Shown here piece after piece: positions 19,801-28,643 of a DNA stretch of 33,126 nucleotides (positions are counted from its first letter, which is position 1; each line of letters begins with the position of its first letter). The stretch lies in the sequence record DRR378314_1453; one strand, written 5' to 3'. The translations under genes were made by a program, and so were the position numbers. The notes beneath the pieces were generated by a model. It made no database searches, was not told the DNA's origin, and was given only the letters and a program-made list of their open reading frames with translations.

Positions 19801-20091
19801 GAAAAACCCCTTTCCTGTGGCCTGGGTGTCGTTATAATCCCGTGGTTTCGCCACGCAATGCGTGCGCGGGCAAGGGAACGCCCCCGCTTCGCAAGCCGCG
19901 CCAACAGCGAATCTCGCCGGAAAAACCGCGACTGTGCTGAATAGTGACAAGGCTTGCAATAAAGCGGTAAGGTCGAAGGTTACACTATTATCTGTCCTGG
20001 ATTGGGCGGCCCTGTGCAAGGGCGGCTGTCGCCTGCAGGGATCTGGGCTCTTAGGTAGCGAGTCGTGACTATGTTAAGGGAGTTGATCAAA

Positions 20092-20680
20092 ATGGCCACC
20101 GGTAGCAAGAGCAAGAAGAAAACGGCCAGCAAGGCGGGCAGCGCGGCTTCCAAAAAAGCCACCACGAAAACGACGACGGCTAAAAAAGCGGTCGCCAAGA
20201 AAGCGGCCGTAAAGAAGGCCCCGGCTAAAAAAGCCGCCGCCAAGACCACCCCGAAACGCGCCACGGCCGCCCCCACCAGGAAAACCACCGCTACCAAAGC
20301 GGCCGCCAAAAAGGCGACCGCGAAAAAAGCCGCGGTAAAGAAACCGGCGGCGAAGAAGACCACGGTGAAAAAAGCCGCAACCGCTCCGGCCAAGAAAGCC
20401 GCCAGCAAAAAGCCGGCGAGCAAACCGGCGGCCAAAAAGGCCGCAGTGAAGAAGGCCGCAGTGAAGAAGACCGCCGCGAAAAAGCCCACGGCGAAGAAAG
20501 CCGCCGTGAAGAAAGCCGCGACCGCTAAATCCGCGACAACGCCGAAAGCACCGGCCAAACAGAGCGCGGCCCAAAAGGCGCCGGCAAAAACCGCCGCCGG
20601 CAAAGCCGCCAAACCCGTCGCCAAAAAGGCGGCGGCGAAGAAAAGCACCGCTCGGAAGGCTACCGCCGCGCCGGCCACGA
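20092..20680 (+). repeat. low-complexity KKAA/PAKK repeats in the dksA 5' region
   Basis: Recurrent AAKK, KKAAVKK and PAKK peptides, including an exact 15-bp tandem duplication AAGGCCGCAGTGAAG at 20437-20466. Confidence 0.9.
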
Positions 20681-21255
20681 ACCCCAATCGTCCGGCCTCC
20701 GCCCAACCGAGCAGCACGCGTTCCCCGGGGACCGCCAGGAGGGCTACCGGCAGCATGGACAGGCCGCCGTCCCGTTCTCCATCTTCCAATCAGGTGACAT
20801 CCAAGGTGAAGAAATCCGCATCCTCCGCCTCCAAGGCGGAAACGCTCATTCATGGTTTTACGCCTTACACGCCCAACCAAGGCGAGGAGTACATGAACGA
20901 AGCACAGCGCGCCCATTTCCGTCAGATTCTGCTGGCCTGGCGCCAGGAACTGATGGAGGAAGCCGACCGCACCATGCACCACCTCCAGGACGAAGTGGCC
21001 AACCTGCCGGACCCGGCCGACCGGGCCACCCAGGAAGAAGAATTCGCTCTGGAGCTGCGCACCCGCGACCGCGAGCGCAAGCTTCTCAAGAAGATCGAAA
21101 AAGCGCTCGACCAGATCGACAAGGACGATTACGGCTTCTGTGATGCCTGCGGCATCGAAATCGGCATCCGCCGCCTGGAAGCCCGCCCCACCGCCGAGCT
21201 CTGCATCGACTGCAAGGAACTGGCGGAAATCAAGGAAAAACAGCTGGCCGGGTGA
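20092..21255 (+). CDS. dksA: RNA polymerase-binding factor DksA with long N-terminal Lys/Ala-rich extension
   Basis: C-terminal EEYMNE..., DPADRA coiled-coil tip, CDAC...CIDC zinc finger; AAGGGAG SD before ATG 20092; sfsA/dksA/gluQ synteny. Confidence 0.93.
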   Translation: MATGSKSKKKTASKAGSAASKKATTKTTTAKKAVAKKAAVKKAPAKKAAAKTTPKRATAAPTRKTTATKAAAKKATAKKAAVKKPAAKKTTVKKAATAPAKKAASKKPASKPAAKKAAVKKAAVKKTAAKKPTAKKAAVKKAATAKSATTPKAPAKQSAAQKAPAKTAAGKAAKPVAKKAAAKKSTARKATAAPATNPNRPASAQPSSTRSPGTARRATGSMDRPPSRSPSSNQVTSKVKKSASSASKAETLIHGFTPYTPNQGEEYMNEAQRAHFRQILLAWRQELMEEADRTMHHLQDEVANLPDPADRATQEEEFALELRTRDRERKLLKKIEKALDQIDKDDYGFCDACGIEIGIRRLEARPTAELCIDCKELAEIKEKQLAG

Positions 21256-22139: not shown

Positions 22140-22316
22140 ATGTACACCGACCGGCTGCTGATCATTTTTATTCTCGGCACCTATCTGTTGTCACCGTCCC
22201 TGATCGACTGGTGGAGCGAAGGCGGCCGCGCCTGGTACCGCCCCTATCTGGTCTGGCTGGGGCTGATCGCATTGAGCTACTGGATCGCCAGGAGTCGGGA
22301 TGTCGATGGCCTATAG
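22140..22316 (+). CDS. cbrX: CbrX-like 58-aa membrane peptide
   Basis: Hand translation MYTDRLLIIFILGTYLLSPSLIDWWSEGGRAWYRPYLVWLGLIALSYWIARSRDVDGL; overlaps the cbrA start by 17 nt; SPxxxDWW and AWYRPY as recalled from Pseudomonas CbrX. Below the ORF-track size cutoff. Confidence 0.85.
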   Translation: MYTDRLLIIFILGTYLLSPSLIDWWSEGGRAWYRPYLVWLGLIALSYWIARSRDVDGL

Positions 22317-25251
22317 TGTCAGCGATCTGATTCTGATCGCCGGCGCCTACCTGCTGTTTCTGTTCCTGGTGGCGTGGATCACCGAGAAGGGCTGGATCCC
22401 GGCGCGTCTGGTACGCCACCCGGCGGTCTATGTGTTTTCCCTGGGGGTCTACGCCAGCGCCTGGGCGATCTACGGCTCGGTGGGCTACGCCCACGACTAC
22501 GGCTACAACTTCCTCGCCTACTTCCTGGGCATCTCCGGCGTGTTCCTGCTGGCGCCGATACTGCTGGCGCCGATCCTGCGGCTCACCACCACCTATCAGC
22601 TCAGTTCCCTGGCCGACCTGTTCGCGTTCCGCTACCGCAGCCGCCTGGCCGGCGCGCTGACCACCGTGATGATGGTGGTCGGCATGCTGCCGCTGCTGTC
22701 GATGCAGATAAAAGCGGTGGCGGAGTCGATCCAGATTCTCACCGGCGAGCCGGACCCGGCCTGGGTGGCGTTCTGGTTCTGCCTGCTGATCACGCTGTTC
22801 GCGATTCTGTTCGGCGCCCGCCATGCCACCGCCCGCGAACGCCACGAAGGCCTGGTGGTGGCCATCGCCACCGAGTCCCTGATCAAGGTGGCGGCGTTCG
22901 CGGCGGTGGCGCTGATCGGCCTGTTCGGCGTGTTCGACGGGCCCAGCGGCCTGGGCGTGTGGCTGGACCAGCACCCGGAGATGCTGTCGCGCCTGTACGC
23001 GCCGCTGCAGGACAACACCTGGCACAGCCTGATCATGGCGTTTTTCGTGTCCGCCGTGGTGATGCCGCACATGTTCCACATGGCGTTCACGGAAAACCTT
23101 AACCCGCGCGCCCTGGTGTCGGCGAGCTGGGGGCTGCCGCTGCTGTTTCTGGTGATGGCGCTGTGCGTGCCGATCATTCTGTGGGCCGCGCTGGCCAGCA
23201 ACGCCACCACCTCGCCGGACTACTTCACACTCGGCGTGGGCCTGGCCAATGGTGGCGGCGGCGCGGTGCTGGGGTATCTGGCCGGGCTGGCCGGCGCCAG
23301 CGGCATGCTGATCGTCGCCATCCTGTCGTTGTCGGGCATGTGCCTGAACCATCTGATCCTGCCCGCCAGCCCGCTCAATTCCGCCCAGGACCTGTACCGG
23401 AATCTGCTCTGGACCCGGCGCGTGCTGATCGCCGCGATTCTCGCCCTGGCCTATGTGTTCTACCGCCTGGCCGGGCCCAATCATTCGGCGGTGGAACTGG
23501 GCGTGTTGTCGTTCGTGGCCGCGCTGCAATTCGTGCCCGGCCTGATCGGCACCCTGTTCTGGCCGTCCGGCAACCGCAACGGCCTGTACGCGGGGCTGTG
23601 CGCCGGCTTCGCAGTGTGGCTGGCGGCGCTGCTGCTGCCCATGGTGTACCCGGACTGGCACGCCCAGCACCTGGTGGAAATGTTCGGCCTGCGCCGGGCC
23701 GAAGGCGCCGACCACTGGAACCAGGTGGCGATCGTGTCGGTGGCCCTCAACGGCGTGGTGTACGCGATCATCTCCATCGTCACGCCCATGTCCCGGTCGG
23801 AGCGCACCGCCGCCGAAGCCTGCGCGGTGGACAGCCTGCGCCGCCCCTACCGCTGGGATCTCAGCGCGCAGACCGTGGACGAGTTCGTCACCGCGCTGAG
23901 CGGGCCGCTGGGGCCCGGCACCGCCGCCCGGGAAGTGGACATGGCCCTCGGCGACCTGCAACTGAATGCCAACGAAACACGGCCCTACGCGCTGCGGCGT
24001 CTGCGTGACCAACTGGAGACCAACCTCTCCGGCCTGCTGGGGCCGTCCGTGGCCCATCAGCTGATGGACGACAACCTGCCCTACAAGCCCCAGGACGGCG
24101 AATCCAGCGAGGACATCCAGTTCATCGAATCGCGCCTGGAACAGTACCGCGACCGCCTCTCCGGACTGGCCGCGGAGCTGGACAGCCTGCGCCGTTTTCA
24201 CCGCCAGACCCTGCTGGAGCTGCCCATGGGCGTGATTTCCCTGGGCGGCGACGGCGAGATCATCGGCTGGAACCGGGCGGTGGAGGACCTCACCGGCATC
24301 GACGCCGAGCACACCATCGGCTCGCGGCTGGCGCATCTGCCGGCGCCCTGGGGCGACCTGCTCTCGGAGTTCGGGCGCGGCGAAGCCATGCACGAGCCGC
24401 AGCGCCATCTGGAGGTGGACGGCCAGTCCCGCTGGATCAGCCTGCACAAATCGCTGATCCAGAGCCCGGGCCCCAGCGAGCAGGCCGGCGGCCTGGTGCT
24501 GGTGCTGGAGGACATCACCGAACTGCGGCAGATGGAATCCCACCTGGCCCACAACGAGCGCCTGGCGTCCATCGGCCGGCTGGCGGCGGGCGTGGCCCAC
24601 GAGATCGGCAACCCGGTGACCGCCATCGCCTGTCTGGCACAGAACCTGGACGGCGAATGCGACCGCGAGGAGCAGACTCTCAGCGCCAGCCAGATCATGG
24701 AGCAGACCCGCCGCATCACCCGTATCGTCGAATCCCTGGTCACGTTCAGCCACTCCGGCGGCCTGCGAGATACCATCCAGGGTCCGGTGAACGTGGCCGC
24801 CACCGCCGCCGAGGCCATTGCGCTGCTACTGCTCGACCCGGACCATCGGGCACAGCGATTTGAGAACCACTGCGCGCCGGATCTGGAAGTGATCGGCGAC
24901 CCCCAGCGCCTGCTGCAGGTGTTCGTCAACCTGCTCGGCAACGCGGCGGACGCCAGCGATGCGGGCGACGCGATCCGCGTGCTCAGTGAAGACCACGGCG
25001 ACAAGGTGCGCATCCAGGTGGAGGACCACGGCCACGGCATTCCCGAGGAATTGCGTGCCGCCCTGTTCGAGCCGTTTGTTACCAGCAAACCGCCCGGCAG
25101 AGGCACGGGGCTGGGTCTGGCGCTGGTTTACAGTATTATCGAGGACCACCACGGCACGGTATGGGTGGAAAGCCCCATCGACGGCGACCGTGGAACCCGC
25201 TTTATCATCGAGCTGCCGTGCTTCAGCGCCGGCGACTTGAGCACGCATTAA
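22300..25251 (+). CDS. cbrA: CbrA-like sensor histidine kinase (SLC5/SSS transporter, STAC, PAS, HisKA, HATPase)
   Basis: ~500-aa polytopic SSS-like N-terminus (SLGVYASAWAIYGSVG), PAS region, LAAGVAHEIGNP, QVFVNLLGNA, GTGLGL; position between gluQ and cbrB/pcnB. Confidence 0.92.
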   Translation: MSMAYSVSDLILIAGAYLLFLFLVAWITEKGWIPARLVRHPAVYVFSLGVYASAWAIYGSVGYAHDYGYNFLAYFLGISGVFLLAPILLAPILRLTTTYQLSSLADLFAFRYRSRLAGALTTVMMVVGMLPLLSMQIKAVAESIQILTGEPDPAWVAFWFCLLITLFAILFGARHATARERHEGLVVAIATESLIKVAAFAAVALIGLFGVFDGPSGLGVWLDQHPEMLSRLYAPLQDNTWHSLIMAFFVSAVVMPHMFHMAFTENLNPRALVSASWGLPLLFLVMALCVPIILWAALASNATTSPDYFTLGVGLANGGGGAVLGYLAGLAGASGMLIVAILSLSGMCLNHLILPASPLNSAQDLYRNLLWTRRVLIAAILALAYVFYRLAGPNHSAVELGVLSFVAALQFVPGLIGTLFWPSGNRNGLYAGLCAGFAVWLAALLLPMVYPDWHAQHLVEMFGLRRAEGADHWNQVAIVSVALNGVVYAIISIVTPMSRSERTAAEACAVDSLRRPYRWDLSAQTVDEFVTALSGPLGPGTAAREVDMALGDLQLNANETRPYALRRLRDQLETNLSGLLGPSVAHQLMDDNLPYKPQDGESSEDIQFIESRLEQYRDRLSGLAAELDSLRRFHRQTLLELPMGVISLGGDGEIIGWNRAVEDLTGIDAEHTIGSRLAHLPAPWGDLLSEFGRGEAMHEPQRHLEVDGQSRWISLHKSLIQSPGPSEQAGGLVLVLEDITELRQMESHLAHNERLASIGRLAAGVAHEIGNPVTAIACLAQNLDGECDREEQTLSASQIMEQTRRITRIVESLVTFSHSGGLRDTIQGPVNVAATAAEAIALLLLDPDHRAQRFENHCAPDLEVIGDPQRLLQVFVNLLGNAADASDAGDAIRVLSEDHGDKVRIQVEDHGHGIPEELRAALFEPFVTSKPPGRGTGLGLALVYSIIEDHHGTVWVESPIDGDRGTRFIIELPCFSAGDLSTH

Positions 25252-25266
25252 AAAAGGAACGGCACC

Positions 25267-26592
25267 ATGAGCCATATCCTGATCGTTGAAGACGAGCCGG
25301 TGATTCGCGGCGCCCTGCGCAAACTACTGGAACGGCACGATCACTCCGTGGCTGAGGCGGAATCCGTGGAGCAGGCCCGCGAGAACGGCCTCACCCAGTG
25401 CGACCTGATCATCAGCGACCTGCGCCTGCCCGGCGAGCCCGGCACCGCGCTGATCGAGCTGGCGGCCCCGGTGCCGGTGCTGATCATGACCAGCTACGCC
25501 AGTCTGCGCTCGGCGGTGGACGCCATGCGCGAAGGCGCCGTGGATTACATCCCCAAGCCGTTCGACCACGATGAAATGCTGATGTCGGTGCAGCGGGTGC
25601 TCAAGGAAGGCCGCATCAACCGGGGCAACCAGGCGCTGCGCCAGGACATGGAGCGCACTTACCCGGTTCGCTCCATGATCGGTGACTGCGAACCGATGCG
25701 CGATCTCAAGCACCGCATCAGCCGCGTCGGCCCCACCGACACCCCGGTGCTGATTCTCGGCGAGGCCGGCACCGGCAAGGAGCTCACCGCGCGCGCCCTG
25801 CACGAACACAGCGAGCGCGCCGCCGCGCCGCTGGTAACGGTGCACTGCGCCGCTCTGCCCAAGACTCTGCAACTGGAGGAACTGTTCGGCAACGACAGCC
25901 AACCCGGCCGCATCGAGAACGCCGACGGCGGCACCTTCTTTCTTGACGAAGTGGGCGAGCTGTCCAACGAGGCGCAAAGCCGCCTGCTGACCCTGCTGGA
26001 ACAAGGGGAGATCCACCGCCAGGGCTCGCTGTCGCCGCGCCGGGTGGACGTGCGCGTGATCGCCAGCAGCCAGATGGATTTGCCGGCCCGGGTCACCGAC
26101 GGTCGCTTCCGCGAGGACCTGTATTACCGCCTCAACGTGATGGAGCTGGAGCTGCCGCCCCTGCGCGAGCGCGAGGACGATATTGAGCAACTGGCCGCCA
26201 CCCTGCTGACGCGCAGCTGCGAAAAGCTCAGCCGTGGGGTGCTGTACTTCACCGACGCCGCGCTCGCCGCCATGCGCGCCTACAGCTGGCCGGGCAACGT
26301 GCGAGAGCTGGAAAACGTGATCGAGCGGGCGGTGATTCTCACCGAAGAGGACGGCATCGGCCCCGCGCAACTGGGCCTGAACCCCAACCGCACCCCGCAG
26401 CGGGTCAGCCGGGCCAGCCTGGACCCCTCCGAGGATCTGTCCCTGGAGGACTATTTCACCCGTTTCGTACTGGAAAACCAGGACAGCATGACCGAGACCG
26501 AACTGGCCCAGAAGCTGGGGATCAGCCGGAAAAGCCTGTGGGAACGCCGGCAACGCCTGGGCATTCCACGCCGCAAGAGCACCCGCCGGTGA
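25267..26592 (+). CDS. cbrB: CbrB-like NtrC-family response regulator lacking the GAFTGA motif
   Basis: REC (ILIVEDE, DLIISDLRLPG), Walker A GEAGTGKE, Walker B FFLDE, FREDLYYRL, WPGNVRELEN, C-terminal LSLEDYF...MTETELAQKLGISRKSLWERRQRLGIPR typical of CbrB. Confidence 0.92.
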   Translation: MSHILIVEDEPVIRGALRKLLERHDHSVAEAESVEQARENGLTQCDLIISDLRLPGEPGTALIELAAPVPVLIMTSYASLRSAVDAMREGAVDYIPKPFDHDEMLMSVQRVLKEGRINRGNQALRQDMERTYPVRSMIGDCEPMRDLKHRISRVGPTDTPVLILGEAGTGKELTARALHEHSERAAAPLVTVHCAALPKTLQLEELFGNDSQPGRIENADGGTFFLDEVGELSNEAQSRLLTLLEQGEIHRQGSLSPRRVDVRVIASSQMDLPARVTDGRFREDLYYRLNVMELELPPLREREDDIEQLAATLLTRSCEKLSRGVLYFTDAALAAMRAYSWPGNVRELENVIERAVILTEEDGIGPAQLGLNPNRTPQRVSRASLDPSEDLSLEDYFTRFVLENQDSMTETELAQKLGISRKSLWERRQRLGIPRRKSTRR

Positions 26593-26646
26593 ATTTCAGT
26601 GCTTGCTTTTGCGGTTTCGATCAGTGCGGAACGGGGCCGGGAGGGG

Positions 26647-26698
26647 TGTTACCCCAGAAGTGTTACCTTACTACACAGGGCGGTAACAGGTGTGCTAC
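26647..26698. promoter_or_regulatory. CbrB-type upstream activating sequences
   Basis: TGTTAC (26647-52), TGTTACC-N14-GGTAACA palindrome (26661-88) and a degenerate TGCTAC (26693-98). Confidence 0.8.
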
Positions 26699-26740
26699 CG
26701 CGCCGGAGCTTATAACTGTTCACATTTCTTCATTTTTTTA

Positions 26741-26753
26741 TAAGTGCTTGATT
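26741..26753 (-). promoter_or_regulatory. IHF binding site
   Basis: Minus strand AATCAAGCACTTA matches WATCAANNNNTTR exactly, in an AT-rich context between the UAS and the promoter. Confidence 0.75.
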
Positions 26754-26773
26754 TGAAAGGGTTTAACAACTTG

Positions 26774-26802
26774 TTGCAATGGAAAAACCATCCATGCACT
26801 AT
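26774..26802 (+). promoter_or_regulatory. putative sigma70-type promoter of the CrcZ-like sRNA
   Basis: TTGCAA (26774-79), 17-bp spacer, CACTAT (26797-802); predicted +1 near 26809-26810, at the base of the first stem. Confidence 0.5.
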
Positions 26803-26809
26803 GAATCCC

Positions 26810-27001
26810 ACGCCACATAAGGAAAACAACAACGGCGTTAAGGCTCATAATAAGAACAAGAAAAGAAGAAGAATAAACTTGGAGCCAAAACAAGATGCCG
26901 TAACAAAAATTGGTTATGGCGCAAGGCAGAAAAAAACACAAACAATAACAACAACAGAATCAGCGCATAGGGGATCACAACCGAGGTTGTGGTCCCTTTT
27001 T
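26810..27001 (+). ncRNA. CrcZ-like Hfq/Crc-sequestering small RNA (~190 nt)
   Basis: Sits at the crcZ locus (cbrB-pcnB). AANAANAA tracts at 26825-32, 26849-76 and 26941-54; short GC stems; ends in an intrinsic terminator. The 5' end is inferred. Confidence 0.8.
26971..27001 (+). terminator. rho-independent terminator of the sRNA
   Basis: GGGATCACAAC-CGAG-GTTGTGGTCCC 11-bp stem (one G-U) followed by TTTTT. Confidence 0.9.
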
Positions 27002-27084
27002 ACTTTCCAGGCCCGCCATATCCCTCACGCCCGGCGGACCGCCCGCCCTTTCTCCAGATCGAATAACCAGCCCGTGGCAAAAAG

Positions 27085-27093
27085 TGCTACCAT
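27085..27093 (+). promoter_or_regulatory. extended -10 promoter for the pcnB operon
   Basis: TG-C-TACCAT downstream of the sRNA terminator and 35 nt before ATG 27129. Confidence 0.5.
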
Positions 27094-27128
27094 GCCGCCT
27101 TTCATTCCGTCAGGACGTTTTTTGCTCA

Positions 27129-28643
27129 ATGGCACGTAACCTTTCACCGAGGCTTAAAAGCGCCCTTACCTGGCTTGTCATGCCCGTGGTCTGGGCCGAC
27201 GCAATTCTTACCTGGGCCCTGGCCCGGCTCGCCGGCATCGTCACCTACCCGCTACGCCTGCTCGGCCGCCCTCTGAGAACATTGACCGCCGTGGCGAGCA
27301 AAGGTTCCAGCGGCGGCACTGCCCTGCCCGAGGCGCGGATCATCCCCCGGGACCAGCATCCGATCTCCCGCAAGCAGATCTCCAGAGCGGCGCTGAATGT
27401 GCTGTATGGGTTGCACGAGCAGGGTTTTCAAGCCTTTCTGGTGGGCGGCTGCCTGCGCGACCTGCTGTGCGGCCGCGAGCCCAAGGACTTCGACGTGGTC
27501 ACCGACGCCACGCCGGAGCAGGTCCAGCGCCTGTTCAAGCGCAGCCGTATCATCGGCCGCCGCTTCCAGATCGTGCATGTGCGTTTCGGCCGCGAAGTGA
27601 TCGAAGTCTCCACGTTCCGCGCCTTTCAACGGGACGACCAGGAGCTCGACCGCGACCAGCACTCCGCCCACGAGGAGACCGGGCTGGTACTGCGCGACAA
27701 CACCTGGGGCAGCATCGAGGAAGACGCCCTGCGGCGCGACTTCACCATCAATGCGCTCTACTACAATATCGCCGACTTCGCGCTGTACGACTTCGTCGGC
27801 AGCCGGCGCGCCATCGAGCGCGGCGAGATCAGCCTGATCGGCGATCCCGAACAGCGCTACCGGGAAGACCCGGTGCGCATGCTGCGCGCCGCCCGCTTCG
27901 CCGCCAAGCTGGGCTTCCGGCTGGACCAGAAGGCAAGCCGCAAGATTCCCGAACTGGCCGAGCTGCTGCTGCAGGTGCCGCCGGCGCGGCTGTTCGACGA
28001 GGTGCTGAAACTGTTCCTCAGCGGCCACGCCCGCGCCTCCATGCAGCAACTGCAGGACCTGGGCCTGTTCCATTTCCTGTTCCCGGAAACCGACCGCAGC
28101 CTGAAGGGCCCCCAGGGCAAGGTCTGGGAGAAGCTGATCCTGGCCGCCATGGACAACACCGACCGGCGGCTGGCGCAGGATAAACCGGTGACGCCGGCGT
28201 TCATCTTCGCCGTACTGTTGTGGCCGGTGACCGTGGCGCGCCTGGAAAAGCTGCGCGCCGACGGCATGCCGCCGGCTCCGGCCCTGCACAAGGCCGCCGG
28301 CTGGGCCCTGAACCAGCAGGTTCAGCACACCGCCATTCCGCGCCGCTTCTCCACCGTGATGCGGGAAATGTGGGACCTGCAGGACCGGCTGCCACGCCGT
28401 GGCGGCCGCCGCGCCGAGGCGCTGGTGCAGCATCCCCGTTTCCGGGCCGCCTACGATTTCCTGCTGCTGCGCGAGCAGGCCGGTGAACTGCCCGCCGGCC
28501 TGGGTGACTGGTGGACACGCTACCAGGACGCCGACGAGGACCAGCGCGAAGCGATGGTGCAGGCGCTCGGCCCCAACCAGGGCGCCAGCGGCGGTGGCAA
28601 GCGCCGCCGGCGCCGGCGCAAACCCGCCAACAGCCAGGGCTGA
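27129..28643 (+). CDS. pcnB: poly(A) polymerase I
   Basis: VGGCLRD, PKDFDVVT, IIGRRFQIVHV (PAP signature), RRDFTINAL, EDPVRMLR, HPRFRAAYDFL, basic C-terminal tail. Start uncertain. Confidence 0.95.
   Translation: MARNLSPRLKSALTWLVMPVVWADAILTWALARLAGIVTYPLRLLGRPLRTLTAVASKGSSGGTALPEARIIPRDQHPISRKQISRAALNVLYGLHEQGFQAFLVGGCLRDLLCGREPKDFDVVTDATPEQVQRLFKRSRIIGRRFQIVHVRFGREVIEVSTFRAFQRDDQELDRDQHSAHEETGLVLRDNTWGSIEEDALRRDFTINALYYNIADFALYDFVGSRRAIERGEISLIGDPEQRYREDPVRMLRAARFAAKLGFRLDQKASRKIPELAELLLQVPPARLFDEVLKLFLSGHARASMQQLQDLGLFHFLFPETDRSLKGPQGKVWEKLILAAMDNTDRRLAQDKPVTPAFIFAVLLWPVTVARLEKLRADGMPPAPALHKAAGWALNQQVQHTAIPRRFSTVMREMWDLQDRLPRRGGRRAEALVQHPRFRAAYDFLLLREQAGELPAGLGDWWTRYQDADEDQREAMVQALGPNQGASGGGKRRRRRRKPANSQG

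Follow-up and report, generated by a model that had tools for sequence, protein, structure and literature searches.

A CbrB orthologue without the GAFTGA loop and the conserved promoter-like elements of its neighbouring small RNA in Alcanivorax

We analyzed a stretch of 33,126 nucleotides (nt) from sequence record DRR378314_1453, referred to below as the window, which belongs to the genome of Alcanivorax, a marine oil-degrading bacterium. Positions 22,140-27,001 hold the genes cbrX, cbrA and cbrB followed by a small RNA (sRNA) gene (table 1), an arrangement known from the CbrAB-CrcZ system of Pseudomonas and Azotobacter. Here we describe a CbrB protein that has lost the loop through which activators of its class contact sigma-54, together with the conserved promoter-like elements in front of the adjacent sRNA. 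Two near-identical CbrB loci were found, one of which is 98% identical to that of the window (L032), and the other, from A. xiamenensis, 83% identical (L033). The GC content of the window is high, about 62-73% outside the sRNA region.

On the + strand between 20065 and 28643 the genes occur in the order dksA, a gluQ-like gene (a class I tRNA-synthetase paralogue), a 58-aa open reading frame (ORF), a sensor kinase gene, cbrB, a gap of 490 nt and pcnB. Residues 641-973 of the kinase contain PAS, HisKA and HATPase_c domains (Pfam), and residues 1-597 match PDB chain 10ed_A ("histidine kinase", 606 aa; E = 1.3e-204). The protein has the composition expected of CbrA, that is, an SLC5-type transporter domain fused to PAS and histidine kinase domains. 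10ed is presumably the structure of Pseudomonas CbrA from a 2026 paper. A single homologue of the small ORF, 40-46% identical, was detected 5' of cbrA in all five outgroup genomes (Pseudomonas, Stutzerimonas, Thalassolituus, Litchfieldella, and Microbulbifer). In the accessible text of a 2022 review, cbrX of P. putida has 58 aa and a 17-nt overlap with cbrA, and the CbrAB system is described solely for Pseudomonadaceae (PMC8871633). Because of the size and overlap of the ORF, its outgroup homologues and the 10ed_A match, the locus can be regarded as a true cbrX-cbrA-cbrB locus. A previous reading of the window from its letters (hereafter the sequence-only reading) had proposed a complete cbrX-cbrA-cbrB-sRNA architecture, every element of which was recovered.

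Comparisons were made with 41 genomes, namely G001, which is the one nearest to the window (77% shared words), and a further 40 relatives; 25 of the 41 are Alcanivoracaceae (G001-G025) and 16 belong to other families. Genome-wide statements concern G001 or these relatives rather than the window's own genome. The promoter analysis was carried out on 111 loci, comprising 31 loci including the window and 80 named loci from a scan of reference genomes; some loci common to both sources come from the same genomes, and the relatives are not independent of each other.

Table 1. Coordinates of the genes and predicted elements of the cbr locus in the window
Feature	Position	Strand	Basis or details
cbrX-like small ORF	22140..22316	+	58 aa; overlaps cbrA by 17 nt
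cbrA, transporter-fused sensor histidine kinase	22300..25251	+	983 aa; Pfam and PDB match
cbrB, REC-AAA+-HTH response regulator without GAFTGA loop	25267..26592	+	441 aa; Pfam
L1 loop remnant of CbrB (G208-G214)	25888..25908	+	NtrC1 and orthologue alignments
Upstream activating site (predicted)	26647..26688	.	TGTTAC 26647, TGTTAC 26661, GTAACA 26683
IHF-consensus match TAAGTGCTTGATT	26741..26753	-	Motif match, between upstream site and promoter
-35-like hexamer TTGCAA	26774..26779	+	TTGC invariant; positions 5-6 at least 80% conserved (18 segments)
-10-like hexamer CACTAT (family CAnnAT)	26797..26802	+	C, A, A, T invariant (18 segments)
A-rich sRNA, CrcZ-like by position and make-up	26809..27004	+	Predicted start; fold, A-richness, conservation
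Intrinsic terminator of sRNA	26969..27004	+	13-pair stem and T run; covariation across family
pcnB	from 27084	+	Downstream of sRNA

CbrB of the window contains the Response_reg, Sigma54_activat (PF00158, E = 1e-48) and AAA_lid_14 domains of Pfam and is 53-56% identical to Pseudomonas CbrB over its full length. A HMMER alignment with A. aeolicus NtrC1 (chains 4l4u and 1ny5) leaves nine residues missing from it between D210 and S211, a gap that coincides exactly with KGAFTGAVS. The same gap appeared in an alignment with 30 orthologues, so the suggestion of the sequence-only reading that this CbrB is devoid of GAFTGA proved correct. The receiver domain (REC), Walker A, Walker B (DE), both arginines of FRxDLYYRL, GNVRELEN and the C-terminal helix-turn-helix (HTH) are all kept, and the protein is still under clear constraint. 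An AlphaFold model built on 15 orthologues had a mean predicted local distance difference test (pLDDT) value of 80.8; its AAA+ domain superposes on the central domains of NtrC1, FleQ, FlrC, LuxO, and PspF at 1.4-2.7 Å, and its top full-length Foldseek matches are NtrX chains. CbrB looks like a working AAA+ DNA-binding regulator in which only the contact with sigma-54 is missing. It falls within the sequence definition of an unconventional bacterial enhancer-binding protein (bEBP), which has the bEBP fold without a functional GAFTGA loop, and it is devoid of the sigma-54 features of CbrB as described and of the sigma-54 activator class. By descent it can be assigned to the CbrB orthologues: phylogenetic analysis placed it in one clade with Pseudomonas CbrBs against the NtrC paralogues.

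Orthologues of CbrB were detected in all 41 genomes searched. We compared the loop in the 30 best loci, which include 19 of the window's genus, 6 from other genera of the family and 5 from other families of the order. The 9-residue deletion is present in the window and in 19 of 19 loci of its genus. Each of the other six Alcanivoracaceae genera, represented by one locus, has a full-length or nearly full-length but degenerate loop, and all six are different (EKDALPGA, HQPG--TG, EKGAFEGA, ERDGNNG, EKGAFAAA, and VTDDSTG), whereas the five loci from other families have GAFTGA or GSFTGA. At a larger scale, the loop is intact in 73 of 79 CbrB-like loci outside Alcanivoracaceae, and all 32 loci of this family are loop-less. 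Moreover, three of the seven family genera have DD or ED in place of the DE pair of Walker B, a decay that should not be tolerable in a sigma-54 activator. A maximum likelihood tree of 63 CbrB-like proteins (quick search, loop columns included in the alignment) was rooted with two NtrC-type paralogues of G001. All 16 Alcanivoracaceae rows formed one clade nested among loop-intact clades, with a Shimodaira-Hasegawa-like approximate likelihood ratio test (SH-aLRT) support of 100, and the window's genus was a subclade of it (SH-aLRT 100). The loss of the loop is specific to CbrB, since all 25 Alcanivoracaceae genomes have rpoN, and GAFTGA and GSFTGA persist in the other two strong PF00158 proteins found in G001.

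Several loop variants were observed elsewhere. Three contigs of Candidatus Thiodiazotropha (L071, L088, and L091) encode CbrB-like proteins without GAFTGA (e.g., LFGPQDERET--RRGG), which form a separate clade and represent the one further clear case of loop loss, unrelated to that in Alcanivoracaceae. Neither an A-rich sRNA nor a sigma-54 site was found downstream of these loci, and they were rejected as a replicate of the loop loss for want of the sRNA. GAFTSA and GAFIGA variants (L056, L079, and L068) belong to a different subgroup with protein-coding genes downstream and were also set aside. In addition, a cbrB-sRNA locus on a contig titled Pedobacter sp. MAG (metagenome-assembled genome; L038, a Bacteroidota bin) groups tightly with Moraxellaceae loci; this contig is probably mis-binned.

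We then turn to the region in front of the sRNA, where promoter conservation was assessed in 18 distinct segments from 31 family loci. The spacer between TTGCAA and CACTAT is 17 nt in the window and exactly 17 nt in 31 of 31 family loci, and its sequence is unconserved apart from one G. Invariant hexamers separated by an unconserved 17-nt spacer are the usual signature of a -35/-10 promoter, and it is conservation only that leads us to call one here. The proposal that TTGCAA-N17-CACTAT places the transcription start at the first RNA stem agrees with what was found, the start being predicted at 26809. The same reading had noted that GG-N10-GC does not occur between 26689 and 26834; the only + strand case in 26593-26850 is at 26682-26695, inside the upstream site. 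On the other hand, its idea that a GG-N13-GC element (19-mer at 26780-26798, GG...GC at 26781-26797) is a mis-spaced relic of a -24/-12 promoter stands for one half. The TGCA end lies at the position of the old -12 GC and is a plausible relic of a -12 element, but the GG half varies within the genus (GG, GC, GA, CC, or AA), and the element as a whole was rejected as a relic.

To describe sigma-54 promoters, a score was fixed beforehand: the 700 nt following cbrB were searched for the closest agreement with TGGCAC-N5-TTGCW, and both GG and GC had to be present. Among the 73 loop-intact loci outside the family, 57 scored 10 of 11, their promoter motif being TGGCAC-N5-nTGC[AT], whereas 7 scored 9 and 9 were lower. 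No 10-of-11 match was found in the 32 Alcanivoracaceae loci over the same distance. A family pattern, TTGC[AC][AT]-N17-CAnnAT, is present in 31 of these 32 loci and in none of the 79 others, a rate which is partly circular because the pattern was written after the family loci had been inspected. Of 2100 shuffled sequences, 9 reached a sigma-54 score of 10 and 11 contained the family pattern. The motifs taken alone are not above chance, and their weight comes from conservation over seven genera and from the contrast with the outgroups; the sequences themselves, their conservation and their phyletic pattern are direct observations. The expectation that loss of GAFTGA should go along with loss of the -24/-12 promoter across genomes was borne out, as a sigma-54 match is found in 57 of 73 loop-intact and 0 of 32 loop-less loci.

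The predicted upstream activating site lies about -162 to -121 from the predicted sRNA start. TGTTAC is the CbrB half-site given in the accessible text of a published study (PMC6296734). The core of the upstream site, GTGTTACC.T.CTAC.C...GGTAACA, is invariant in the genus alignment and recognizable in other genera of the family. The IHF-like site is kept in all 14 family representatives, always equally far from the promoter, and occupies the same column as that of related sigma-54 promoters; ihfA is present in G001. Both the CbrB sites and the IHF site had been predicted at these places, and both are kept at conserved distances across the family. This comparative test lends support to the earlier suggestion that regulator and promoter moved to sigma-70 together while the distant upstream site and the IHF site were retained.

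In an anchored alignment, the C of CAnnAT in the family loci was brought into register with the C of the -12 GC in the outgroup loci. Both groups then share the columns of the anchor C, of the IHF-like core (TTGATTT/TTGTTTT) and of the first sRNA hairpin, and the loop of this hairpin is recognizably the same (ACATAAGGAAAACAACAA in the window and ACATAACAAAAACAAG in a Moraxellaceae-like relative). The columns match in all loop-intact members of the smallest clade including the family (SH-aLRT 85). The family TTGCAA is located 10 bp upstream of the old -24 box (the TGGCAC position), which is now part of the unconserved spacer, and the invariant first C of CAnnAT corresponds to the C of the sigma-54 -12 GC. 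Starting from this C, 4 of 27 listed sigma-54 promoters read CAATAT, CATTAT or CAGTAT, so that a usable -10 element would have been latent. In a Pseudomonas locus the Rfam CrcZ model starts 13 nt after the -12 C, and the spacing rule for sigma-70 gives a start here at 26809, 12 nt after the matching C. Thus, the 5' end of the RNA has probably been preserved through the switch. The crcZ-like sigma-54 promoters themselves form two spacing classes, with the IHF core either 25 or 35 nt before TGGCAC, i.e., one helical turn apart (L031, L044, and L066 versus L038, L048, and L054). The 35-nt spacing is that of the loop-intact members of the clade containing the family, and the 25-nt spacing is that of a second outgroup class.

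The sRNA between cbrB and pcnB is about 195 nt long and is predicted to fold into four hairpins (z-score -4.87, 200 shuffles). It contains 44% A compared with 18% window-wide and has 11 AANAANAA words versus 1.35 +/- 1.35 in 1000 shuffles, which makes it the richest 196-nt stretch for this word on either strand of the window. In the predicted fold the words sit in hairpin loops and a long unpaired stretch. The sRNA is single-copy in G001 and is kept in six of the seven family genera, with compensatory changes in the terminator and the first stem. Rfam gave no match, and thus no CrcZ, for the whole window at gathering scores; a search of the intergenic region at E <= 10 gave a 17.5-bit match of CyaR to the terminator only, which was taken as chance. 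As a positive control, the CrcZ model scored 309 bits on a Pseudomonas locus, and it found none of seven non-Pseudomonas loci. By its position, make-up and first-hairpin homology, the sRNA can be viewed as the counterpart of CrcZ.

The stretch is contained in 24 sequencing runs, 17 of which are recorded as RNA. The sRNA was covered in all four runs examined, always by assembled contigs, which show no starts, strands or levels. In one run (X15) a contig extends over 26808-26976 and another over 25900-26831, from cbrB into the 5' part of the sRNA. In another (X17) a contig begins at 26827, right after a 22-letter tail which we take to be the end of a sequencing adapter. The contig ends were discarded as evidence on the 5' end or the expression of the sRNA, because the starts differ, one end is loose and DNA may be present in the libraries.

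With regard to relatives, two loci from other families (L031 and L028) carry A-rich sRNA genes in tandem after cbrB, two per locus, and every copy has TGTTAC/GTAACA sites and a TGGCAC-N5-TGC promoter of its own. These are CrcZ/CrcY-like duplications outside Pseudomonas, none of which was found by Rfam.

The presence of the Hfq and Crc partners was also investigated. The hfq gene was found in G001. A Pseudomonas Crc, identified by its match to PDB 4jg3 (E = 1.2e-145), was used as query with a cut-off of E <= 1e-10. Among the 16 genomes from other families of the order, 12 gave a match (one match was checked and was best to Crc), and no homologue was detected in the 25 Alcanivoracaceae genomes at this cut-off. 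G001 encodes four PF03372 proteins, namely ExoIII, two ExeM-like nucleases and an unassigned protein without a PDB match, and no model named Crc was among the NCBIfam matches. The sequence-only reading had asked for the presence of crc and hfq to be confirmed; hfq was confirmed in G001, and crc was not found in the family at the cut-off used. Catabolite repression through CrcZ and Crc is therefore not established. Because Hfq is present and Crc was not found, an Hfq-only sponge is the better guess for the sRNA. This suggests that the carbon-source hierarchy in Alcanivorax may run without Crc.

From these comparisons, we consider it probable that CbrB, as an unconventional bEBP independent of sigma-54, acts from the retained upstream site on a promoter of the sigma-70 family, and that the product of this promoter is a CrcZ-like RNA serving as an Hfq sponge. 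The transporter-kinase CbrA would phosphorylate CbrB, which would bind the TGTTAC/GTAACA sites about 120-165 bp upstream of the sRNA gene and, with the help of an IHF-induced bend, activate the weak, activator-dependent promoter TTGCAA-N17-CACTAT. CbrB would act without sigma-54 because the sigma-54-contacting L1 loop is deleted. The A-rich sRNA would then titrate Hfq, no Crc partner having been found. Activation by CbrB, the identity of the sigma factor, looping by IHF, titration of Hfq and the order of events are what we infer.

Several observations weigh against this reading, in addition to the partial circularity of the family pattern. The hexamers match the sigma-70 consensus at only 7 of 12 positions, and a sigma-70 promoter scan reported no site in 26400-27200 and did not list them; such weak hexamers would suit an activator-dependent promoter but are no proof of one by themselves. 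An alternative pair, TTAACA-N17-AACCAT at 26763-26791, overlaps them 11 bp upstream and is kept in the genus alignment, though not in the other genera of the family. Among the loop-intact loci, 16 of 73 score below 10 of 11, the low scores coming mostly from loci that have other genes downstream or are cut, and in 3 of 32 family loci a repeat some 270 nt before the -35 contains a 9-of-11 sigma-54 match. The loss of the loop together with the promoter is a single evolutionary event in one family and not a replicated correlation. The sister relation behind the argument for ancestral spacing has an SH-aLRT of only 85, and the loop columns were kept in that alignment. In G001 the palindrome TGTTAC-N16-GTAACA occurs once, as does the extended upstream site, and a reversed control pattern also occurs once, so that the uniqueness of the site says nothing about the size of the CbrB regulon. 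Finally, one 97%-complete family genome (G024) has no sRNA downstream of cbrB or elsewhere when searched with the window sRNA, and its sRNA arm may have been lost.

Two of these points involve loci with further peculiarities. The repeats carrying the 9-of-11 matches, the sole ones of this kind in the family, are long, GC-rich and palindromic, and they are insertions found in some species of the genus (L017, L020 and L033) at 100-270 nt after the cbrB stop, before the upstream site. The CbrB-like protein of G024 (L027), a genome from a different genus of the family, sits at the end of a long branch (0.89) and has a DD Walker B and the most degenerate loop.

Among other explanations, it is unlikely that the promoter belongs to the sigma-70 family while CbrB is no longer its activator but a repressor, an architectural binder or some other regulator, the sRNA being constitutive or otherwise controlled. 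Such a role would agree with the altered Walker B of three of seven family genera and with the NtrX chains at the top of the Foldseek matches, and activation by CbrB is itself only deduced. According to the accessible text of the VpsR paper, atypical EBPs work in various ways and NtrX is reported as a repressor (PMC6158489). However, across seven genera the upstream and IHF-like sites lie at the same distances as in the sigma-54 relatives, which points to activation at a distance, and repression would be poorly served by a site at -120 to -165. The weakness of the hexamers fits an activator-dependent promoter, and REC, AAA+ and HTH are clearly constrained.

Quite unlikely, in our view, is that CbrB activates and that another sigma-70-family factor, such as RpoS or a heat- or stress-type sigma, reads the promoter. 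In favour of it, the hexamers agree poorly with the sigma-70 consensus, and the -10 hexamer begins with an invariant C that departs from this consensus; RpoS-type promoters have such a C near -13/-12. The invariant C can also be explained as the inherited C of the -12 GC, and TTGCAA with a 17-nt spacer is ordinary housekeeping geometry, both of which count against this reading.

It seems improbable that the sRNA arises mainly by read-through from cbrB and processing, with hexamers that are not a promoter. Processing of a cbrB-crcZ co-transcript has been reported for P. putida, there is no terminator-like site between the cbrB stop and the sRNA, and the longer X15 contig spans cbrB into the sRNA, although contigs cannot show single transcripts and may derive from DNA. 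Processing would need neither the invariant hexamers with their fixed, unconserved 17-nt spacer over seven genera nor the kept upstream and IHF-like sites.

That the module still depends on sigma-54, through GG-N13-GC as a non-canonical promoter and a non-canonical contact, is hardly credible: rpoN and the GG...GC pair are present, but the GAFTGA loop is deleted, the GG is unconserved within the genus, the spacing is 3 nt too long, none of the 32 family loci reaches a 10-of-11 match, and Walker B is altered in relatives.

The locus resembles CbrAB-CrcZ (and CrcY or CrcX) of Pseudomonas and Azotobacter in the order cbrX (58 aa, 17-nt overlap), cbrA, cbrB and sRNA, in the flanking dksA, gluQ-like gene and pcnB, in the TGTTAC-type upstream sites with an IHF site, and in an A-rich sRNA that starts at the same distance from the -12/-10 anchor. 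It differs in several ways. CbrB needs sigma-54 in Pseudomonas and has no GAFTGA in Alcanivorax; the promoter is -35/-10-like and not -24/-12; the sRNA is about 195 nt long compared with 398 positions of the Rfam model and is missed by the CrcZ model. Furthermore, the known system works with Hfq and Crc, whereas no Crc was found in Alcanivoracaceae, and the host lies outside Pseudomonadaceae. In a full-text literature search that left most subscription journals out of reach, we found neither a sigma-54-independent CbrB nor a Cbr system in Alcanivorax, co-mentions of Alcanivorax and CbrA being incidental; both absences are provisional.

GAFTGA-less bEBPs at sigma-70 promoters have already been established. 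The accessible texts list R. capsulatus NtrC, Caulobacter NtrC, VpsR, TyrR, PhhR, and HupR, and also name HsfA and NtrX among GAFTGA-less bEBPs (PMC6158489; bioRxiv 10.1101/2023.06.06.543975). R. capsulatus NtrC, which appears to be the closest working analogue, has an L1-loop deletion and activates the housekeeping polymerase from enhancer-like sites according to the part of the preprint available (bioRxiv 10.1101/2023.06.06.543975); it needs ATP binding but not hydrolysis (same source, citing Bowman and Kranz 1998). As far as that text goes, both proteins are response-regulator bEBPs with a deleted loop and kept Walker motifs, and the predicted sites of CbrB would likewise lie far upstream of a sigma-70-type promoter. 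Unlike R. capsulatus NtrC, the Alcanivorax protein belongs to the CbrB orthologous group and to a different class of bacteria, and its close relatives keep the sigma-54 form of both regulator and promoter, therefore the transition is readable.

Caulobacter NtrC, with an 8-residue L1 deletion (accessible texts of PMC6158489 and bioRxiv 10.1101/2023.06.06.543975), and Vibrio cholerae VpsR are likewise described there as unconventional bEBPs at sigma-70 promoters. VpsR has no GAFTGA and an altered Walker B in which the DE pair is lost, and the DD or ED pair of some Alcanivoracaceae resembles it. VpsR binds near its promoter and uses c-di-GMP, unlike CbrB here, and Caulobacter NtrC also represses; in the parts of these sources that are accessible, neither is linked with a single sRNA that is driven from a distant site through an IHF bend. 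The VpsR paper, in its accessible text, regards atypical EBPs as a possible evolutionary link between the two sigma classes (PMC6158489).

The route by which a sigma-54 activator evolves into a sigma-70 activator is still an open question. In the GAFTGA-less cases known so far, the orthologous groups are old and isolated, and their ancestral promoters have disappeared. In the present case, the interest is that both sides of the switch and the intermediates of decay are kept among close relatives. A regulator and its single adjacent target can be compared with those of close relatives that still use sigma-54, with the binding sites, IHF-like site and RNA start in register and with graded decay of loop and ATPase motif across genera. 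The regulator-promoter pair could thus serve as a natural example of how such a switch can evolve, and the Cbr system is extended beyond Pseudomonadaceae to a key marine hydrocarbon degrader.

As a tentative scenario, which falls a little short of being probable, we propose a stepwise natural conversion from sigma-54 to sigma-70, with gain of a -35, reuse of the -12, decay of the loop, decay of Walker B in some lineages and loss of Crc leading to an Hfq-only sponge, perhaps with the sRNA as the single target of CbrB. The steps up to the decay of the loop also form part of the probable reading given above. The ancestor of Alcanivoracaceae would have had a sigma-54 promoter like that of the relatives. 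A -35 hexamer might have arisen one helical turn upstream of the -24 box, and the -12 GC with its AT-rich flank might have become the -10 hexamer, so that the transcription start would have stayed in place, along with the upstream site and the IHF bend. Afterwards the GAFTGA loop, released from sigma-54, would have decayed independently and differently in each genus and been deleted in that of the window. If the whole scenario is true, an AAA+ enhancer-binding protein can activate the sigma-70 polymerase by looping from -120 to -165, and the relatives would be natural intermediates for dissecting the activation.

The dksA reading frame of the window (20065-21255, + strand) is open for 396 aa, in which the N-terminal and zinc-finger domains of DksA follow a histone-H1-like stretch (Pfam HC2, E = 2e-12) of about 270 residues rich in Lys, Ala, Pro and Thr. 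The AT skew of this region is 0.53.

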